A stretch of DNA of 63,544 bases, the filler included, from Nitrospinota bacterium (GTDB lineage: Bacteria; JAUXIQ01): NCBI GenBank assembly GCA_030620925.1. It is 8 parts of 8 records of this genome, joined end to end, with 100 filler letters (N's around TTAATTAATTAA, not from the genome) between each part and the next. Parts side by side here need not be neighbours in the genome. Positions count along the whole stretch, not along the records: positions 38,392 to 41,392 come from JAUXIQ010000374.1; 7 more parts are not named here. The stretch is one strand, 5' to 3'. Position 1 is the first letter of the stretch, and each line of letters starts with the position of its first letter. Shown here one piece after another: positions 3,855-40,635 of the stretch. The translations under genes were made by a program, and so were the position numbers. The notes under the pieces were generated by a model. The model ran no database searches and had not been told where the DNA came from. It saw only the letters and a list, made by a program, of their open reading frames with translations.

Positions 3855-4060
3855 TAAGACACCTTTTTAAAATCCCGATAGAAGGATTTCGCAATAATAC
3901 TTGAAACACTCTGGAAATAACAGTAAACTGTCGTTTGGGCTTGTCTTTGAAGGCGGTTGACGCATCGTGGCCCCGATTCCAGAGGCCCTGCGGCAATACA
4001 TACTTTAAAATGTTCTATAAGACGTGGTATAGGGGGCAAAACGAGGCACGGGTTGACATT

Positions 4061-5047
4061 GTGAAAAGAGTTAAACTTATGGCAAAAGGAATTTCCGCCC
4101 TGGCTGTCCTGCTTTTATTAACATTATCGGTGGGCGCGGCGCGGGGGATAGTAATAGACCGGGTTGTGGCTAAGGTTAACGATGAGGTCATTACCCTGAG
4201 CGAAGTTCAGGAGAAGGGTATGCCTCTGCTTTCTAAGGTGAGGGGCAGCCGTTCTGAAAACGGGCGAGAAGTGCAGGAAGCGGAAAAAGAGGTTCTGAAT
4301 CGCCTCATAGATATAAAGCTTCAGCTCCAGGACGCCAGAAGTCTCGGTTTAACTATCGCTGAGAAGATAGTTGATGAAGCCGTTGAGAACATAAAGAAAA
4401 AGAATAACATCACCCAGGAAGCCCTGGAAAGGATGCTGGTGGAGGCGGGCACCGGCATCGAGGCTTACCGAAACGAGATAAGGGATCAATACCTGTTGCA
4501 GAGGGTCTATTATTTCAGGGTCATAACCTCCGCCAAAGTTAATGCGGCCGACATAAAAGCCTATTACACAGAACATATATCCGAGTATACAAGTCCGGGA
4601 AAGGTGAACGTCTTTCAGATTTTCTTCACCGTGGACCCCGGCAACCCCACCAAGAGGGAGGATGTGGTGCGGGCCAGGGCCATGGAAGTAATAGAGCGTA
4701 TAAGCGCCGGTGAAGATTTCGCCATTCTGGCTAAAGCCTATTCCGAAGGACCGAACGCATCACTGGGGGGAGACTTGGGATTTTTTAAGCGCGGGGAGGT
4801 TCTTCCCGTGCTTGAAGAAGCCATGTTCAGCCTGGAATCGGGCCAGGTTAGCGATCTTATCAGGAGCAAAGCGGGCTTCCATATTCTCAAGGTCAAGGAG
4901 CATATTTATCCTGCGCCCTTGCCCATAGAAAAAGTTAAAAAAGATATAATTAGTATCATCAAAAAGGAAAAAGCTGAGGATAATTACGGGAAATGGATTA
5001 AAGAACTGAGGCAAAAAGCTTTTATAGAGATAACCTACGACCTGTAA
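4061..5047 (+). CDS. SurA/PrsA-like parvulin peptidyl-prolyl isomerase (start could be GTG 4061 or ATG 4079)
   Basis: Signal peptide, SurA N-domain DRVVAKVNDEVITLSE, PpiC motifs FAILAKAYSEG..GGDLG and GFHILKV; follows mfd. Confidence 0.88.
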   Translation: MKRVKLMAKGISALAVLLLLTLSVGAARGIVIDRVVAKVNDEVITLSEVQEKGMPLLSKVRGSRSENGREVQEAEKEVLNRLIDIKLQLQDARSLGLTIAEKIVDEAVENIKKKNNITQEALERMLVEAGTGIEAYRNEIRDQYLLQRVYYFRVITSAKVNAADIKAYYTEHISEYTSPGKVNVFQIFFTVDPGNPTKREDVVRARAMEVIERISAGEDFAILAKAYSEGPNASLGGDLGFFKRGEVLPVLEEAMFSLESGQVSDLIRSKAGFHILKVKEHIYPAPLPIEKVKKDIISIIKKEKAEDNYGKWIKELRQKAFIEITYDL

Positions 5048-5101
5048 GAGAAGAAGGCTGAGCATAAGGTCGGTTGATAGGCGGGCCTAAGGGAATTAAA
5101 A

Positions 5102-5389
5102 TTGCGCCTGGATAACTACCTAAAAACCTGTCGTCTGATAAGGAAGAGGGCCCTGGCCAAAGAGTTGTGCAAGGAGGGGGCCGTATCCGTGAACGGTATG
5201 AAAGCCAAAGCGGGGAGGGCAGTCAAAGAAGGGGACAGAATAATTATAGATTTATGGGATAAGTCGATGGAGCTGGAGGTGGTGAGCCTGCCGGCTGGGA
5301 ATGTGTCGCGCAGCGAGGCTCGAGAGTTGTACTGTATGTTGGATGAACGTAAGAAGTCGATGGAAATGGAGCGGCAAAGCCCCGACTAA
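5102..5389 (+). CDS. S4-domain RNA-binding protein (YabO/Hsp15-like)
   Basis: MRLDNYLKTCRLIRKRALAKELCKEGAVSVNGMKAKAGRAVKEGDRI; TTG start. Confidence 0.88.
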   Translation: MRLDNYLKTCRLIRKRALAKELCKEGAVSVNGMKAKAGRAVKEGDRIIIDLWDKSMELEVVSLPAGNVSRSEARELYCMLDERKKSMEMERQSPD

Positions 5390-5487
5390 TCTCTCGAGCG
5401 AGTGAAGGGACACCACTGGAAAATGTTTTCCTAAGTAATTACAAAGAGAGAGGTAATAACTTTAACTTTTGAAAGGTGTGAAGGAAG

Positions 5488-6276
5488 ATGAATGTGAAAA
5501 AAAACAAGGAACAGGATATCGTAAAAGCCGTCGACCATGCTTTCGACGTGCTTGAAGCCTTTAACGGGAAAAGCGATGAGTTGGGTGTTACGGAGCTGAG
5601 CAAGGCTCTGGGCCTCTCGAAAAACAACGTGTTCAGACTGTTGGCCACCTTTGAGCTGAGAGGTTATATAGAGCAGAATAAGAAAACCGAAAACTATCGG
5701 CTGGGCCTCAAGGTGTTTGAACTGGGCCAGATATACAAACACCAGAGCGGACTGCTGAGACAGGCGCGCCCCATACTCAAAGAGATGGTGGCCGAATGCG
5801 ACGAATCTGCCTATATCGCCATTATGAGAGACGGCCATGTCGTCTATCTGGATATGATCGACACCACGAAGTCCATCAAAGTAATTTCCAGGGTGGGTTT
5901 GAGGGTGCCCGGATACTGCACGGCCATCGGTAAAGCCCAGTTGGCATTCGAGTCGGAGGACGAGATAGAAAGGTTGTACGAGGGGAAAACTCTGGAGCGG
6001 TTCACCAAAAACACCATTACCGACCTGGGAAAACTCAGGGCCGAGCTCCAGCAGATAACCATCGATGGTGAAGCCATAGACACCGGAGAGTACGAAGAAG
6101 AGATCAAGTGTGTGGGCGTTCCCATAAGGGATTACACACGCCGGGTCGTGGCCGGCATCTGCATATCCGGCCCTTCTTTCCGCATGGCCAAAGAACGGAT
6201 GAAAAAGGAGCTTTCCCCGCTGGTCCATGATGCCGGCATGAGGATATCCATGAAGTTAGGCTACCCCGGGGATTAA
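5488..6276 (+). CDS. IclR-family transcriptional regulator
   Basis: N-terminal wHTH (LGVTELSKALGLSKNNVFRLLATF), YRLG, CTAIGKA, CVGVPIRD..AGICISGP. Confidence 0.95.
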   Translation: MNVKKNKEQDIVKAVDHAFDVLEAFNGKSDELGVTELSKALGLSKNNVFRLLATFELRGYIEQNKKTENYRLGLKVFELGQIYKHQSGLLRQARPILKEMVAECDESAYIAIMRDGHVVYLDMIDTTKSIKVISRVGLRVPGYCTAIGKAQLAFESEDEIERLYEGKTLERFTKNTITDLGKLRAELQQITIDGEAIDTGEYEEEIKCVGVPIRDYTRRVVAGICISGPSFRMAKERMKKELSPLVHDAGMRISMKLGYPGD

Positions 6277-6292
6277 AAGCCCCCAGACTCAA

Positions 6293-6838
6293 ATGAAATA
6301 CAAAGACAAGAGAACGGTGATGAACAAGGAGGAGATGAGAAGGGCCGTAATGCGCATCGCCCATGAGATTCTGGAGAAGAACAAGGATGCAAAAGACCTG
6401 GTTATCATCGGGATAAAGGGTGGAGGCGTATTTTTAGCCAGGCGGCTGGTCAGCCAGATAGAAAAGATCGAGCAGATGGACGTGCCCATAGGAGAAATGG
6501 ATATCACCCTCTACCGTGACGATACGCCAAGCCCGCTCAATAAACCCATAATCCACAAGACCGAAATACCCTGCTCCATTAACGACAAAAGAGTAGTCCT
6601 GGTGGACGACGTGCTTTACACCGGAAGGACCATCAGGGCCGCACTGGACAGTCTCATGGATATGGGCAGGCCCAGCGCGGTGCAATTGGCCGTGCTCATA
6701 GACAGGGGCCACCGTGAACTGCCCATCCAGGCCGATTACGTTGGCAAAAACATCCCCACTGCCAGGAGCGAGGATGTAAAAGTGAAGCTGGAGGAAGAGG
6801 AAGGGGAGGACAGCGTTATCATACAGGAAGCGGTTTGA
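6293..6838 (+). CDS. pyrR: Bifunctional pyr attenuation regulator / uracil phosphoribosyltransferase
   Basis: RIAHEILEKN, DITLYRDD, PRPP motif VVLVDDVLYTGRTIRAA, DRGHRELPIQADYVGKN. Confidence 0.97.
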   Translation: MKYKDKRTVMNKEEMRRAVMRIAHEILEKNKDAKDLVIIGIKGGGVFLARRLVSQIEKIEQMDVPIGEMDITLYRDDTPSPLNKPIIHKTEIPCSINDKRVVLVDDVLYTGRTIRAALDSLMDMGRPSAVQLAVLIDRGHRELPIQADYVGKNIPTARSEDVKVKLEEEEGEDSVIIQEAV

Positions 6839-6895
6839 AAGAGTTGGAGTAAGAGTGTGAACATGAAATTTCCGGTGCGCTCAAGAATTGTTATG

Positions 6896-6931
6896 AGCCT
6901 TCTCCTTTGATTAAGGGGGAGGCTTTTTTTT
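6896..6931 (+). terminator. Intrinsic terminator between pyrR and the amidohydrolase gene
   Basis: AGCCTTCTCCTT-TGATT-AAGGGGGAGGCT stem (12 bp including G:U pairs) followed by a T run. Confidence 0.85.
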
Positions 6932-6940
6932 ATTGATAAA

Positions 6941-8215
6941 ATGAAAAAGGAGCGATCACAAGTGCCTCACGGCTACAGCCTTATGGTAAAAGAAGCACTT
7001 ATCCAGAGCGCTGAAGAATCCAGCCAAACTGATATTTGTATAAACAGCGGTGAAATATGCGATATAGGCAGACCCCTCGAACACCAGGCGGATGAGTACA
7101 TAGAAGCCGGAGGGAAACTGGTTAGCCCGGGCTTCGCCAACGCTCACACCCACCTGGACAAGTCGGACCTCCTTTCTCGAATGACGCCGGACCAGTTCGG
7201 ATACAGTCTGGAGCAGAACCGTCAGCTCATACGACAGTTTAAGAAGAACTATACCGTCTCCGAAGTAAAGGAGAGGGCCGTAAAAGTCGCTCTGGAGATG
7301 CTGGCGCAGGGCACCACCGCCATCCGGACACAGGTGGATGTAGACCCCACCGCGGGCCTTACCCCCCTGAAAGCTTTGCTGGAATTGAAAGAAGAGCTGG
7401 TAGATAAAATTACCATACAGATATGCGCTTTTCCGCAGGAAGGGGTGCTCAAGGAAGGAGCATATAAATTGCTGGAAGGGGCCATGCAAGAGGGAGCGGA
7501 CCTCCTGGGAGGTCTTCCTCTGGTGGAGGAGGGGCTTGAGAACCAGAGACGTCATATAGATCTGCTTTTTGAGCTGGCCATGAAATATGATAAGCATCTG
7601 GACGTTCAGGTGGATGAGTCCAACGACCCCAAGGATTTTATCCTGCCCTACCTCGTGGAGAAGACCTTGATGGAGGGGTATCAGGGGCGCGTCGCCGCCA
7701 CGCACGCCATCTCACTGGCCGCCGTGGAAGACGCCGCGGCAATGCCGGTTATGGAAAAGATGGCCGAGGCGAAGATGACGGTGATCGTGACCCCCAGTTG
7801 CAACCTCATCACCCGGTTCCCGGCGCAGCCCGGCTCGCGCCCCCACAACAGCATCACCCGCATAAAGGAACTTTCCCGGGCGGGTGTGAAGGTGGCGTTG
7901 GGCACGGATAATATCCGAGACGTCTTCTACCCCCTGGGAAACGGCAGCATGTTAAGAGAGATGCACGTGATGGCGACCACCACGCGCTTGAGCGGAGTAA
8001 AAGATATAGATGCAGTACTGGATATGGCCACCCTGAACGCCGCGGAATTGCTCGGTCTCGATTACGGTGTTGAAAAAGGTAAGACCGCTGATCTGCTGGT
8101 GACCGCGGCAGATTCCAAAAGAGACCTCATTTGCGGCCCGGAAAATATTCCTGTTATAATAAAAAACGGGAGGATGGTCAGAAGGACGGCCCCCGTCCCG
8201 CCGACCAGGTCGTAG
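6941..8215 (+). CDS. Amidohydrolase of the bacterial cytosine deaminase (CodA)-like family
   Basis: PGFANAHTHLDKS (HxH), GTTAIRTQVDV, AFPQEG, AATHA, ALGTDNIRD, MATLNAA, GKTADL. Confidence 0.85.
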   Translation: MKKERSQVPHGYSLMVKEALIQSAEESSQTDICINSGEICDIGRPLEHQADEYIEAGGKLVSPGFANAHTHLDKSDLLSRMTPDQFGYSLEQNRQLIRQFKKNYTVSEVKERAVKVALEMLAQGTTAIRTQVDVDPTAGLTPLKALLELKEELVDKITIQICAFPQEGVLKEGAYKLLEGAMQEGADLLGGLPLVEEGLENQRRHIDLLFELAMKYDKHLDVQVDESNDPKDFILPYLVEKTLMEGYQGRVAATHAISLAAVEDAAAMPVMEKMAEAKMTVIVTPSCNLITRFPAQPGSRPHNSITRIKELSRAGVKVALGTDNIRDVFYPLGNGSMLREMHVMATTTRLSGVKDIDAVLDMATLNAAELLGLDYGVEKGKTADLLVTAADSKRDLICGPENIPVIIKNGRMVRRTAPVPPTRS

Positions 8216-8282
8216 CAGGGCGGGGATAAACCCTGCCTCGAGGAGTATGGTGGCCCGGGAGGGCTAACTGAAAGGGAATAAG

Positions 8283-9221
8283 ATGCCCCCTATAGAGAGC
8301 GAGATAGAAGAGCTGGTGAAGGAAGCTTACGACCTGCACCTGCACGTGGGCCCCGACATCCTCCCCCGAAAGTACAACGTGAAAAAACTGATAGCCGAAG
8401 AAGAGGGGAGAATAGCAGGTGTGGCCCTCAAATCTCACAGTTTCCCCACCATTTCCGCCATCGCCGACGTGCTGCAACAGCAGCAGAGCCCTCTGAAGCT
8501 CATCGGCTCGATAACCCTCAACTATTTCATGGGCGGGTTCAACCCCAGTGCGGTGTACGCCTCTACCATCATGTCAACCGAGTTCCCGCTCATCGTCTGG
8601 TTCCCCACCGTCCACGCATGGAACCACCTCAAACACAACTACAGCGACTACGAGATTCCGCCCGAATGGGTCAAAGATCCTAATTTTATGCCCAGGCTGA
8701 AAACTGAGCTTAAGGCCATTCGTGTATCCGATGACTTGAATAATCGTCTCTTCGAGAAATGCTCGAAAGTGCTGAACATGGTGCGCAGGCTGAATTGCAT
8801 CATCGCCACCGGACATCTCTCCTGGCCCGAAGCGGAGACTCTCACCAGAGAGGCGCTGGATATGGGATGCAAAGTAATCCTTACCCACCCCATGCAAAAA
8901 GATATCAATATGCCCCTTGAGGTGCAGATAGAGCTGGCCCGGGCGGGCGCCTTCGTGGAGTTCTGCTATATCATGTATCTGGACAGGGATAACCCCGAAG
9001 ATTACCCCCCGGACCTCATTACCAAATATATCAACGAGATAGGCGCTGAACATTGTATCCTCTCCTCGGATGCCGGCCAGCACCACAACCCGGGGCCCAG
9101 CGAGTCACTCATGAGTTTCGCGATACTGCTTGCTGAACAGGGCATCACCATCGATCAGTTGGAAAAAATGATGGTGAGGAACCCCCGCTATCTCCTGGGG
9201 TTGGAAGAAGCGGACACTTAA
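8283..9221 (+). CDS. Metal-dependent TIM-barrel amidohydrolase-related protein (DUF6282-like)
   Basis: YDLHLHVGPD, LKSH, VWFPT, ATGHLS, LTHP, ILSSDAGQ..NP, RNPRYLL. Confidence 0.75.
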   Translation: MPPIESEIEELVKEAYDLHLHVGPDILPRKYNVKKLIAEEEGRIAGVALKSHSFPTISAIADVLQQQQSPLKLIGSITLNYFMGGFNPSAVYASTIMSTEFPLIVWFPTVHAWNHLKHNYSDYEIPPEWVKDPNFMPRLKTELKAIRVSDDLNNRLFEKCSKVLNMVRRLNCIIATGHLSWPEAETLTREALDMGCKVILTHPMQKDINMPLEVQIELARAGAFVEFCYIMYLDRDNPEDYPPDLITKYINEIGAEHCILSSDAGQHHNPGPSESLMSFAILLAEQGITIDQLEKMMVRNPRYLLGLEEADT

Positions 9222-9331
9222 TGAAGCGCCTCTATCCGGGCCTGACATACCATTTCAATAAGAAGAACGAGGGATAAACCAGCGGCTTAACATTGGAATT
9301 TTTTCCTGATACGTTAACCCGGAGCTCGAGT

Positions 9332-9971
9332 ATGCCGCAAAAACATAACGCCGAACGTTGGGATGAGATATTCGCCTCCTCGGAGGGTGATATTTCATGG
9401 CCTCTCGCTTATCTGGTCGAAGAGATGGACAGGCTCAAGCTGAAGGGCCGGGCCCTCGACCTGGGGTGTGGTGCGGGTCGGCACTGCATACCGCTGGTGC
9501 GCAATGGCTTCGAGACCCACGGACTGGATATTTCCCTTAAAGCGCTGTCGAAGGCTGCTCATAACATCCGGAGGGAAGGGGCAGATGCCAATTTGAAACA
9601 GGGGGAAATGGGAAACTTACCGTACAGAGAAGGCATCTTCGACCTGGTGGTGTGCATAAACGTGATTCACCATAACGACTCAGAAGGTGCCCGGAGGAGC
9701 ACCGAAGAGATAAAGCGGGTGTTAAAACCGGGAGGATATCTCATCGCCACCATCGCCGCCACCAGACACTATAATTACGGCAAAGGCAAAAAGATAGATG
9801 AAAAGACCTTCCTCCGCCAATCGGGAGTCGAAACCGGGATTCTTCATTATTTCATGGAGGAGAAGGACGTCCGGTCCCACTTTCAGGGTTTTGCCTTTGA
9901 GCACCTGGCCGAGCTTTTGGGCCCCGGTTTTTTTAACGAGAGCAGAGGAAAGGAGAACTACCACTGGTTCC
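9332..9971 (+). CDS. Class I SAM-dependent methyltransferase, 3'-truncated by contig end
   Basis: ALDLGCGAGRH, GLDIS, LPY..FDLVV, RVLKPGG. Confidence 0.9.
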
Positions 9972-37723: not shown

Positions 37724-38275
37724 CTATTTTTCTTCAGGGATTTTCTCCGCGCGTCTGTAAAGTTCGTCGAGGTCGACGACGTTGTAATACCGGCCGATAT
37801 CAGCCAGGCTGTGAGCGTCGCTGTTGGAGAGGAGCATGAGGTCGTTATCTGCGGCTACTTCCCTTATTTTCTCTTCGTCGATGTACCAGTAGGAGTTGTG
37901 CATTTCCAGGCCGTGTATGCCGTCCAGTTGATGGTGGTTGGTGTGGAACAGGTAGCCGGGATGGGCGATAAAGCGGAAGACGGTGTCGCTCTCCAGGTAA
38001 AGCTCCACCACGTGATTATCTCCTGAGCGTTTTTCCTGCCCCGGAATGATGATGATGGAATTATCAAAACTCTCTTCGACCACCCGTCTCACCTGGCGGG
38101 CGTATTTCAGGGCGTCGTGGTCGGTGATGGCCAGCCCGTCGAGATCGCGCTCCAGGGCCTTATCTACGATCTTCCCCACCGTCTTCTCATCCACGGGGGC
38201 GAACTGTGTGGCTTCCTGACAGTGCGTGTGAAGGTCCAGCTTGAGCTTCATTCCCGCTTTTTCCGAGGGTTTCAT
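37724..38275 (-). CDS. Small PHP-domain phosphoesterase
   Basis: DLHTH, AITDHD, IPGQE, AHP, NSDAH. Confidence 0.88.
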   Translation of the reverse strand: MKPSEKAGMKLKLDLHTHCQEATQFAPVDEKTVGKIVDKALERDLDGLAITDHDALKYARQVRRVVEESFDNSIIIIPGQEKRSGDNHVVELYLESDTVFRFIAHPGYLFHTNHHQLDGIHGLEMHNSYWYIDEEKIREVAADNDLMLLSNSDAHSLADIGRYYNVVDLDELYRRAEKIPEEK

Positions 38276-38391: not shown

Positions 38392-39812
38392 CCCATCATG
38401 GATGAGCTCACGTCGCGCAGGATGGCCAGCTCGCCTCCGCTCTGTTTCTTATCCCTTTTGTAGACCCTGGGCAGGCTGGGCGTCGCGTCCTCGCTCCACA
38501 GGGAGCTTTCCACGGGGTCGGTGTCCAGGATGTCATCGAGGTCCTTCATGTGCTGCCAGGATCTCGGCTGGCCTCCCCTATGAGGGATCTGGTCGGCTAT
38601 GCTCTTTTCAACCTTTCCCTTGATGACCTTGAGCAGCAGGTCTATGTTTTCTATGGTCTCTTTATGGAGGTATTGCTCTTCTTCATCGCCCGGATCGCCG
38701 AATTCCTTGCGCTGAAGGGCGGACATGTTCTTGTCCAGGGCCTCTTTCTGCTCGCCTTCCTGGGCGGCCTGATCCATGGGTTCCCCTTGTTCTTCCCCCT
38801 CTTCCTCAGAACCCATCTCTTCGGCCTGGTCCGCCTCTTCGTCGGAGTCAGGCTCCTCCTCCATCGCTATTTTTTTTTTGTCGATTATCTCCTCGGTAAT
38901 CTCTTCTATCTGTTCGTGCACGTCCGGCGGCACCCGGAAGGTGGTTATATATTTCATCACCTTCAGGTCTTCCAGGATCGCTTTGGAGCGGCCGGAAAGG
39001 ATGGCTTTGGACTTAATGATCTTGATGCCCTTAACCAGGAACGTCCGGTCTGTGAGAAGGGAGTTGGTGTCGTCCAGCTTATAATCGTTGATGAGGGTGG
39101 ATAGAAGCTCCAGCAGCGCCTCTTTGACCTCTTTGGGGACTTCAACCGCGGACATGAGCTTGAAGGCCCTTTCGAAAACGTTCCTGTCCACGCTGGGGAC
39201 TATCTGGCTATAGTCGGTGGTGGCATCGGCGTAGAGGTCTACTACTTTCTTTGCGGCCTCCCACATGTTCTGCTGGATGAGGCCCACGGTCTTATATTGG
39301 ATGGTGAAGCGGTCCAGGTTTGCGGGGTCCAGCGGTTCGTTATAGTATTCGTCCTTTGTGGGGTTGCTGGTAGCGATGGCGGTGAGAAGAGGTATCTTTT
39401 CCCCGCCGTACTTCCGTTCGTTCAGGATGCGAAGAAGGATGTTGAGCGCTTCGCCGGGCGCCCTGGAAACGTCGTCCAGGACGCAAATTTCCGCGGTGAG
39501 TATTCCTCCCTTCCTTATGCTCTGCTTGATAAGCTCGCCTTCGGTGCTTTTTTCCCTGGCGATTATGATATCGCCCACCAGCTCGGCCAGGCGGGTATCC
39601 CTGTGGAGTTGGTAGAAGTAGAAGTGGAGGTCGGCGGTATCGGCGGCGATTTCGGCGAGCATGGTTTTGGCGGTTCCAGGCGGACCTTCCAGGTAGATGT
39701 GCTCCCTGGAGACGATGCCCAGAAGGATGGCCTCCTTCATGTCATCATGGCCCACGACATATTTGTCCATCTCGCTTATAATGTTTGCCATACCTTTGTT
39801 TACGTCTTTCAA
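38392..39812 (-). CDS. MoxR/RavA-like AAA+ ATPase fused through an acidic linker to a VWA domain, 3'-truncated (TTG start; ATG 39791 is an alternative)
   Basis: EGPPGTAKT, VLDDVSRA..LNILLRILNER, ATSN, LDRF; E/D-rich linker; LAILRDVSSSM (MIDAS DxSxS) at contig end. Confidence 0.85.
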
Positions 39813-40200: not shown

Positions 40201-40635
40201 TTATCCTCGAGACGGCAGAGCCGCCACCGCATGGCCTTGAACGGTTTTCTGGCCCTGCTGAGTTTCGCCCCATATATCCATCTCTACCAGATTGTCGCTG
40301 CCCTCCTGGTATTTTTTAGTAATCTGACCTTTGCAGGTGACGGTGTCGCCGGGGAAAGTCACGGCGGTGAAGCGCACGCCGAGCTTCTTCAGCGAACCTT
40401 TGGGCAGCCAATCGGTAAGGAACTGGCCCACGAAAGCCATGCTGAGCATACCATGGGCGATGGGTTGATCGAACCCTGCTTTTTTAGCGAAATCCTCTAC
40501 CGTGTGCAAGGGGTTGAAATCTCCTGAAGCTCCGGCATATTTGACCAACTGCACCCTGGTGACCGGCTCTTTAACCAGCTCGGGTATGCTGTCACCTTCG
40601 TTGACGTCCTCGAAACAGAGCTCTTGTTCCGCCAT
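40201..40635 (-). CDS. MaoC-type (hot-dog) enoyl-CoA hydratase/dehydratase
   Basis: YAGASGDFNPLH, IAHGM, VRF..FPGD. Confidence 0.93.
   Translation of the reverse strand: MAEQELCFEDVNEGDSIPELVKEPVTRVQLVKYAGASGDFNPLHTVEDFAKKAGFDQPIAHGMLSMAFVGQFLTDWLPKGSLKKLGVRFTAVTFPGDTVTCKGQITKKYQEGSDNLVEMDIWGETQQGQKTVQGHAVAALPSRG

Follow-up and report, generated by a model that had tools for sequence, protein, structure and literature searches.

A conserved run of nine to twelve A's as a probable recoding site between the ATPase and VWA halves of a fused MoxR gene

Does a single gene for a MoxR-class ATPase fused to a von Willebrand factor A (VWA) domain give rise to one protein or to two? The question is raised by a locus in a stretch of 63,544 nucleotides, filler included, from a Nitrospinota bacterium (assembly GCA_030620925.1, genome G000), hereafter the window, in which the 5' part of such a gene reads, on the minus strand, through a complete AAA+ ATPase module, an acidic linker and the metal ion-dependent adhesion site (MIDAS) motif with which the VWA domain begins. 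An uninterrupted run of ten A's (A10) sits at the end of the ATPase module, and an earlier note on this DNA had suggested that slippage on this run lets the gene yield both a free MoxR ATPase and an ATPase-VWA fusion. Following a comparison with orthologous genes, we hold it to be probable that A10, placed between the domains of a fused, ChlD-like MoxR gene, serves as a programmed recoding site and gives free ATPase as well as fusion.

The site reads ...GAGGAG ATAATC GAC AAAAAAAAAA TAG CGATGGAGGAGGAGCC TGA... (minus strand, 38848-38895), and re-reading of the sequence returned all the elements that the earlier note had listed, these being A10 itself, a TAG in the +1 frame, a TGA in the -1 frame and a Shine-Dalgarno (SD)-like GAGGAG 9 nt upstream (Table 1). 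Frame 0 proceeds through D311 K312 K313 K314 I315 into the acidic linker and then to DVSSS, the MIDAS motif. The gene itself is incomplete: its contig (G000:C179, 3001 b) ends at 38392, two codons further on. Because the contig end cuts the gene, the VWA domain proper is visible in orthologues only. One of these is P0001, a protein of 636 amino acids (aa) that is 96% identical to the window protein over 100% of the latter's length and matches Pfam VWA at residues 462-619 (39.2 bits, cut-off 23.8). The missing 3' part was not found elsewhere in G000, where the sole match covers residues 1-473. The Pfam matches on residues 9-289 of the window protein are bpMoxR (PF20030, 77.7 bits, cut-off 27), AAA_5 (68.4, cut-off 22), AAA_3 (42.8, cut-off 27) and AAA_lid_8, the last lying slightly below its cut-off of 22.8 bits in the window and above it in orthologues. 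Walker A (GPPGTAKT) and Walker B (VLDD(V/I)SR) motifs are present in the window protein and in its orthologues; G43-T50 and D113/D114, as well as D467, S469 and S471 of the MIDAS motif, are invariant in an alignment of 20 sequences (A1), and the nearest solved chains to the ATPase are the MoxR protein 2r44 (E 1.2e-17) and RavA. The AlphaFold model of P0001 (mean predicted local distance difference test score, pLDDT, 68) comprises an ATPase module that extends to about residue 320 and, at 461-630, a confidently predicted VWA fold, with residues 325-386 and 408-456 at pLDDT under 50, and it places the KKK encoded by the run within a predicted helix (H302-330) that spans the junction. Pfam and this model thus agree with the note's placing of A10 where the AAA module ends and the acidic linker begins.

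The run is genuine. Logan contigs of three different studies (X1 record 2, X2 record 7 and X5 record 10) bridge A10 with 0 gaps, a fourth (X6 record 15) being left out of the count for having 19 letters only on one side. Contigs give the consensus length of a run, with minority length variants being invisible in them, and since those of three studies span the run gap-free, A10 is the consensus of the DNA and the in-frame reading is not a homopolymer error. A10 is the longest homopolymer of the window, the next longest counting 8, and it is the sole A/T run of at least 10 inside a long open reading frame (ORF) in the genome. The only other A/T run of at least 9 deep within a long ORF is an A9 outside the window (G000:C263:2454-2462; CTC AAA AAA AAA TAC), located near codon 336 in an open frame of 578 codons.

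Conservation of the run was assessed in a scan of one genome per species, which returned 375 relatives, the best 80 of which were examined (80 genome loci and the window, 94 ATPase modules; labels of metagenome-assembled genomes, MAGs, are as deposited). All 70 run-bearing fused genes, namely 69 from 68 public genome loci and that of the window, possess 9-12 uninterrupted A's at the homologous place (A10 in 53, A9 in 10, A11 in 6 and A12 in 1). In orthologues down to 46% identity the run is kept as AAA, never AAG, which for the 69 public genes is what the earlier note's proposal predicted. The loci are labelled Nitrospinota, Entotheonella/Tectimicrobiota, Poribacteria, Dadabacteria/Thermodesulfobacteriota and others. 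All three codon phases are used for the start of the run (50, 9 and 11 genes), in contexts such as GAC AAA AAA AAA A, CGA AAA AAA AAA G and CAA AAA AAA AAC, with adjoining CGA, AGA and CAA codons recruited to lengthen it. Lysine codons elsewhere in the N domain are divided into 697 AAA and 699 AAG, those of six columns in which at least 90% of the 70 genes have Lys into 197 AAA and 217 AAG, and the longest other A run within the same genes is 4-8. Because AAA and AAG are about even elsewhere and the run is of pure A's, conservation is at the level of nucleotides. More than 1000 protein homologues exist, and the 120 listed are nearly all fusions of 590-750 aa (two are shorter, 432 and 443 aa), with KKK at the junction in 104, KKN in 15 and a single exception, P0004. 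Repeating the analysis on metagenomes with the alignment as query (at least 558 relatives, best 80 examined) brought up 26 genes with A9-A12 at the homologous place, of which 11 are in frame, 13 at -1, 1 at +1 and 1 without an assigned frame, some of these surely stemming from the same organisms as the genome loci; a metagenome scan with the window protein alone found no relative. Near-identical sequences may differ by one or two A's, with L116 (A10) standing against L101, L074 and L080 (A11), L041 (A9) against L072, L079, L098 and L099 (A10), and L088 (A12) against L007/L010 (A10), and these differences reflect either true polymorphism of tract length or assembly error.

The reading frames on both sides of the run point to what it does. 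The fusion is in frame in 24 of the 70 genes, the window included; the other 46 require a frame change, with the VWA half at -1 in 45 and at +1 in one (L041, A9). In these 46 out-of-frame genes a zero-frame stop follows 0-8 codons past the run, and the VWA frame stays open all the way from the run in 45 of 45 -1 genes. In that frame nucleotide diversity at the three codon positions is 0.18 / 0.13 / 0.54 (43 alignable -1 genes), a pattern that indicates a translated, constrained frame under purifying selection. The first ATG, GTG or TTG in the VWA frame of the out-of-frame genes lies anywhere from +2 to +345 nt past the run, varying between close relatives, and is preceded by an SD-like motif in 4 of 46; with starts so scattered and the motif so rare, independent initiation of the VWA half is not conserved. 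Frame change at the run would then be the sole conserved route to the VWA half in these genes. In the 24 in-frame genes it is the alternative frames that close early, the -1 frame at a median of 2 codons past the run (background 17) and the +1 frame at a median of 8.5 (background 13). Out-of-frame stops near the run, which the earlier note had noticed in the window, are present in orthologues too. On a quick tree of the N domain (FastTree) at least 6 switches between the in-frame and out-of-frame states are required, 4-5 of them forced by starred branches, and in one clade all 25 genes have A10, need -1 and share their zero-frame stop. The out-of-frame state occurs in short-read assemblies (MEGAHIT/SPAdes-type names: L036, L047, L054, L056, L065, L073, L079) and in chromosome-level MAGs alike and, being present in both kinds of assembly, is not an artefact of one sequencing technology. 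One locus, L007 (a contig of Entotheonella sp. DD2), contains two complete tandem copies of the gene (4001-5889 and 8257-9884, ~4.2 kb apart), each with A10 directly followed by a zero-frame TAG and with its VWA half at -1.

How, then, do lineages fare whose fused gene has no run? In 12 of 12 run-less fused genes, at loci labelled SAR324/Lambdaproteobacteria (L015, L017, L019, L023, L028, L031, L034, L035, L037, L044, L064, L071), a standalone bpMoxR gene of 326-345 aa follows within about 30-210 nt and ends at the position homologous to the run; L023 may serve as an example, with its fused gene at 3995-6007 and the free ATPase at 6109-7089. The SAR324-type junctions have A stretches of 2-4 at the longest and no KKK. 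Six of six further run-less fused genes, in metagenome contigs (L103-L106, L108, L109), possess the same two-gene arrangement, so that a separate MoxR gene lies directly downstream in 18 of the 18 run-less fused genes with a readable downstream flank (L111, whose locus is cut by a contig end, falls outside this count). By contrast, a standalone ATPase gene is found in the flanks of 0 of 68 run-bearing loci, and whole-genome searches for a standalone or extra copy found none in G000, G002, G003 and G004. The standalone ATPases group with the recoded genes on the N-domain tree, while a long branch leads to the ATPase module of the SAR324 fusions. Walker A and B are preserved in both, and identity to the N domain of P0001 is 52-60% for the free ATPase and 32-51% for the fusion's own module, which suggests that the two-gene version arose by duplication and division of labour. 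In comparative terms, free ATPase and ATPase-VWA protein appear to be made either from two genes or from one run-bearing gene, and the proposal of two products from one gene by slippage on the A run comes through this comparison well.

On this basis we propose the following course of events. Faithful transcripts of the window's in-frame allele would give the long subunit, about 636 aa by homology, and transcripts that have gained or lost one A, or ribosomes slipping to -1, would meet a stop within 0-7 codons, yielding a free ATPase of 314-321 aa (about 35 kDa): the 314-aa form would stem from A9 transcripts and the 321-aa form, ending ...KKKNSDGGGA, from A11 transcripts or a -1 shift. In most orthologues the situation would be reversed, with the short form as the zero-frame product and the fusion arising via the shift. 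Both products would assemble into one MoxR motor, composed of free ATPase protomers and of protomers bearing the tethered VWA adaptor, as ChlI does with ChlD. By that analogy we expect the joint motor to present its MIDAS-bearing adaptor, as NorQ-NorD and CobS-CobT also suggest. The comparisons establish that the run exists and is conserved as nucleotides, how the frames are arranged and that other lineages have a two-gene alternative; that slippage takes place, how often it does so, how the products assemble and what they do in the cell we infer.

RNA polymerase slippage would be the main mechanism, favoured somewhat over ribosomal -1 frameshifting or sliding. We lean towards the polymerase because at least 9 A's are kept although 7 would serve a ribosomal shift, because there is no conserved SD-like element upstream and no conserved structure downstream, because polymerase slippage would leave the rare +1 alleles productive as well, and because the recoding review of Atkins et al. 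(PMC5009743) reports efficient slippage by the bacterial polymerase where 9 A or T stand in a row and describes for Thermus dnaX an in-frame layout like that of the window. The site possesses the sequence features of Thermus dnaX-type slippage, that is, a homopolymer of at least 9 A's beyond the need of the protein, with the alternative frames closed or the VWA frame open; of a -1 site of the Escherichia coli dnaX/chlD type it has the heptamer, trivially, and lacks conserved stimulators. The same two products could be made by the ribosome, either by a -1 shift on an A_AAA_AAA heptamer or by sliding on the poly(A) track, and we regard this as possible rather than probable. An in-phase heptamer is contained in any run of at least 9 A's, exactly -1 is needed in 45 of the 46 out-of-frame genes, and chlD uses A_AAA_AAR shift sites at the analogous junction, according to the same review (PMC5009743); 7 A's would be enough for such a shift, yet 70 of 70 genes have at least 9, and the +1 arrangements (L041, A9; L088, A12), which may be assembly errors, are not rescued by it. 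As to stimulators, SD-like GAGG does occur about 9-12 nt upstream in the window and in L002, but an SD-like motif is found upstream of the run in only 18 of 70 genes and 5 of 45 -1 genes, so that GAGGAG, which the earlier note had described as SD-like, was rejected as a conserved stimulator and probably represents merely two Glu codons. A conserved downstream RNA structure was likewise rejected as a general stimulator. The flanks of the run in the window fold no better than shuffles (z +0.59 downstream, -0.24 upstream), median downstream z values are -0.23 for in-frame and -1.24 for -1 genes, and the RNAalifold consensus of 21 sequences is weak (-5.85 kcal/mol, covariation term -0.28, compensatory change in 2 of 12 pairs), with the downstream minimum free energy being only -1.5 to -3.3 kcal/mol in the AT-rich -1 genes L047, L072 and L079. 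On the ribosome's side, 9 of 45 -1 genes have a downstream z below -2, and in one Dadabacteria clade, where ribosomal frameshifting may contribute, folding of the 70 nt downstream is better than that of shuffles, z reaching about -3 (L039, -3.7).

Other explanations dispense with recoding altogether. The run might be a contingency tract at the level of DNA, on which replication slippage switches cells between the fused and unfused states (phase variation), each cell then holding one form. The tract indeed differs among near-identical sequences in the three clades named above (A11 in the third being inferred from in-frame proteins such as P0070), and the tree requires repeated switches of frame. 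On the other hand, the 25-gene clade is uniform in run length, frame and stop, the two-gene lineages encode both forms constitutively, a sign that both are needed at once, and the contigs of three studies agree on A10 in the window's population, though contigs hide minorities. Contingency loci, moreover, are typically genes for surface or host interaction, not phylum-spanning cytoplasmic ATPases, and taken together these points make phase variation quite unlikely. Very unlikely, in our estimate, is that the run of the in-frame alleles is an evolutionary leftover or a Lys-rich hinge, with the full-length fusion alone mattering and slippage products being noise. The window gene is an in-frame fusion as far as its contig reaches, its KKK does lie in the predicted helix across the junction, and its run is of no unusual length for the genome by count; against this, in-frame genes keep pure A runs in three phases, extended by CGA and CAA codons, where conserved Lys columns elsewhere are half AAG, and neither run-less fusions nor standalone ATPases have KKK here, so the protein does not need it. 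The early closure of the -1 frame (2 codons against a background of 17) and the whole-genome searches that found no separate ATPase gene in in-frame genomes point the same way. That the run is a sequencing or assembly artefact, behind which lie two ordinary genes (MoxR and a VWA protein) or an ordinary fusion everywhere, we find scarcely credible: errors do occur easily in homopolymers, and MAGs, in part long-read ones, are the source of many loci, but for the window the independent short-read contigs of three studies, A10 without a gap, contradict it, both frame states recur in short- and long-read assemblies, the out-of-frame VWA ORFs lack conserved starts, and an error model leaves the conservation of the run unexplained.

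Several observations nonetheless weigh against a programmed recoding site or narrow its support. The 2.5-Mb genome has 2 A/T runs of at least 10 where 1.7 are expected from composition, so that by number such runs are no rarity in it; because length alone is unremarkable, the case rests on the position of the run and its conservation. The comparative counts cover the best-scoring relatives only (the best 80 of 375 in genomes and the best 80 of at least 558 in metagenomes), and the examined sequences are phylogenetically related, with one clade supplying 25 of the 45 -1 genes and many rows belonging to one Dadabacteria clade; the downstream folding in one Dadabacteria clade, given above, belongs here as well. 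P0004 is a fused protein without the run, known here from its protein sequence alone, its DNA not being among 17 genomes of the Entotheonella-type phylum. Three run-less fused paralogues of 640-645 aa and 45% identity (L180-L182, in G016, G017 and G013) lack a free ATPase gene beside them, though a copy with A10 is present in the same genomes. In L182 (G013) an internal TAG lies within the match. Finally, in-frame and out-of-frame alleles should differ strongly in the ratio of long to short product, a poor fit to a finely set stoichiometry. The earlier note's further suggestion, that slippage sets the ratio of ATPase to adaptor, therefore fares less well: easy switching between alleles argues that no exact ratio is needed.

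Set among known systems, a recoding site in the fused MoxR gene would have counterparts in part only. RavA-ViaA and CbbQ-CbbO are two-gene chaperone pairs of MoxR ATPase and VWA protein. Together with NorQ-NorD and CobS-CobT they share with the present family a MoxR-class hexameric ATPase with one VWA/MIDAS partner, whereas in all four the VWA protein comes from a separate gene and has no ATPase module, with the VWA domain here being covalently joined to a full ATPase module and the free ATPase predicted to come from the same gene as the fusion. The Pfam family bpMoxR, which we take to derive from MoxR-vWA-beta-propeller ternary systems, is the best match of the window ATPase; unlike those systems, the present one has no adjacent beta-propeller or other conserved partner among the flanking proteins scanned. 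In NorQ-NorD (PMC13036017) and CobS-CobT (bioRxiv 10.64898/2026.10.09.757910) the VWA domain docks at the central pore of the MoxR-type hexamer. The closest parallel in genetic design is chlD, where programmed frameshifting on an A-rich signal makes two subunits from one gene (Kuznetsov, Milenkin and Antonov 2022, PMC9227772; Atkins et al. 2016, PMC5009743). The chelatase genes (Mg-/Co-chelatase, chlD/chlI) share with the MoxR-VWA family an AAA+ module, an acidic linker and a VWA domain with MIDAS, an A-rich recoding site at the AAA/VWA junction, a short product that is the free ATPase subunit and a long one that is the ATPase-VWA subunit, and the absence of a separate small-subunit gene wherever the recoding signal is present. 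They differ in that the window ATPase is of the MoxR/bpMoxR type (PF20030, AAA_5, AAA_3), not ChlI/BchI, that the signal here is a homopolymer of 9-12 A's where chlD has an A_AAA_AAR heptamer with downstream structure, and that in-frame and out-of-frame alleles coexist in the MoxR-VWA family. In Thermus thermophilus dnaX, according to the 2016 review (PMC5009743), tau and gamma arise by transcriptional slippage on A9/T9, with both other frames closed by stops and roughly half the protein made at full length. The in-frame alleles resemble this layout in having the long product in frame, at least 9 A's and close stops in both other frames; in dnaX, and here presumably, a truncated AAA+ protein forms the short product and co-assembles with the long one, and in both cases other lineages reach both products by other means. 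The likeness ends with the protein, the clamp loader belonging to an unrelated AAA+ clade, and with the out-of-frame state, which is rare in dnaX and the majority in the MoxR-VWA family. Like the author of the earlier note, we found no earlier description of recoding in a MoxR gene, judging by title and abstract, among the papers listed on MoxR with transcriptional slippage or frameshifting and on slippage with von Willebrand or AAA+ proteins, and the terms 'MoxR' and 'von Willebrand' do not occur in the larger part of the 2016 review (PMC5009743); the gene sets of the 2013/2020 chlD papers of Antonov and colleagues could conceivably include members of the family. What appears new from the gene comparison is the chlD-like two-subunit logic in the MoxR class, with a plain homopolymer as signal and with both frame arrangements and a two-gene alternative within one orthologous family.

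The coordinates of the gene and its parts are collected in Table 1. The window is a chain of separate contigs with seven artificial joints, each consisting of N44-TTAATTAATTAA-N44 (a six-frame stop linker), and because of these joints gene order across them is meaningless. Identity of the gene as a chlD/cobT-type chelatase was considered and rejected: with a cut-off of 779.45, NCBIfam TIGR02442 reaches 19.5 bits, the matches listed include no BchD/ChlD or BchI/ChlI model, and Pfam Mg_chelatase reaches 19.8 bits against a cut-off of 20.3 over residues 18-54 only. Among 34 flanking proteins from 12 loci plus the window we found neither a CobN/ChlH gene, the remainder of the genomes not having been searched for one, nor a gene for a beta-propeller partner. 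A conserved operon or partner that would name the function was rejected as well, the neighbours varying by phylum (MaoC dehydratase, RibBA, SDR, PHP, peptidase S58, YceG, glutamate 5-kinase-like and others). In the window (40201-40635, minus) and in the nearest relative (L002, 3237-3677) the MoxR-VWA gene has a gene for a MaoC-like dehydratase upstream, which the other phyla examined lack. A PHP-type phosphoesterase ORF is found at 37724-38275 of the window (minus), on the neighbouring contig just past the artificial joint, and in two Entotheonella-type loci a PHP_C-containing ORF follows ~1 kb downstream of the orthologue, after an SDR gene (L003:6959-7651, L010:7095-7790); a PHP ORF may occur on both sides of this comparison by chance, or perhaps a reference was used to order the contigs.

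Table 1. Coordinates of the fused MoxR gene, its putative recoding site and the contig joints in the window
Feature	Position	Strand	Basis
Fused MoxR AAA+ / acidic linker / VWA gene, 5' part, 1421 nt (473 codons)	38392..39812	minus	ORF, Pfam, homology
AAA+ ATPase core (bpMoxR residues 9-183; AAA_5 residues 38-169), Walker A GPPGTAKT, Walker B LDD	39264..39788	minus	Pfam and alignment
AAA lid domain (residues 234-289)	38946..39113	minus	Pfam AAA_lid_8, E 1.6e-4, 21.9 bits
GAGGAG, SD-like, 9 nt upstream of run	38889..38894	minus	sequence
A10 slippery run, proposed recoding site: codons K312 K313 K314 and first base of I315	38870..38879	minus	sequence
TAG, +1 frame, immediately after run; would end A9-transcript product at 314 aa	38867..38869	minus	sequence; same TAG in L002
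TGA, -1 frame, 7 codons past run; would end product of A11 transcript or -1 ribosomal shift at 321 aa	38848..38850	minus	sequence; same place in L002
Acidic linker, predicted disordered (residues 315-466)	38415..38869	minus	translation and AlphaFold model of P0001
MIDAS motif DVSSS (DxSxS), start of VWA domain	38400..38414	minus	sequence; VWA profile in P0001
Artificial contig joints	9972-10071, 14219-14318, 31545-31644, 38292-38391, 41393-41492, 45268-45367, 48355-48454		linker sequence

To a wider picture we would give about an even chance. In it the family represents an old multi-phylum system with a housekeeping role, whose MoxR motor of free ATPase and VWA-tethered ATPase would be made from one gene by RNA polymerase slippage on 9-12 A's, with slippage being so efficient that the genomic frame hardly matters, alleles drift freely from one frame to the other, and some lineages escape by duplication to two genes. 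Dadabacteria-type genomes that retain the gene measure 1.4-2.4 Mb. With a recoding site of this kind, the few cellular (non-mobile) bacterial genes that recode for two subunits would be joined by a well-supported case of wide conservation, and one with a natural control built in, as run-less lineages split the job over two genes. To our knowledge, MoxR ATPases are otherwise described with VWA partners that bear no ATPase module, and the logic of ChlI/ChlD, in which a free ATPase works with an ATPase-VWA subunit, would thus extend from the chelatases to the MoxR class. For annotation the consequence is that in about two thirds of orthologues the gene would be called two genes or a pseudogene, hiding the fusion protein. 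The interchange of in-frame and out-of-frame alleles would provide a tractable system in which to study the tolerance of changes in product ratio, and knowledge that there are two types of subunit would be a prerequisite for reconstituting the MoxR-VWA machine.

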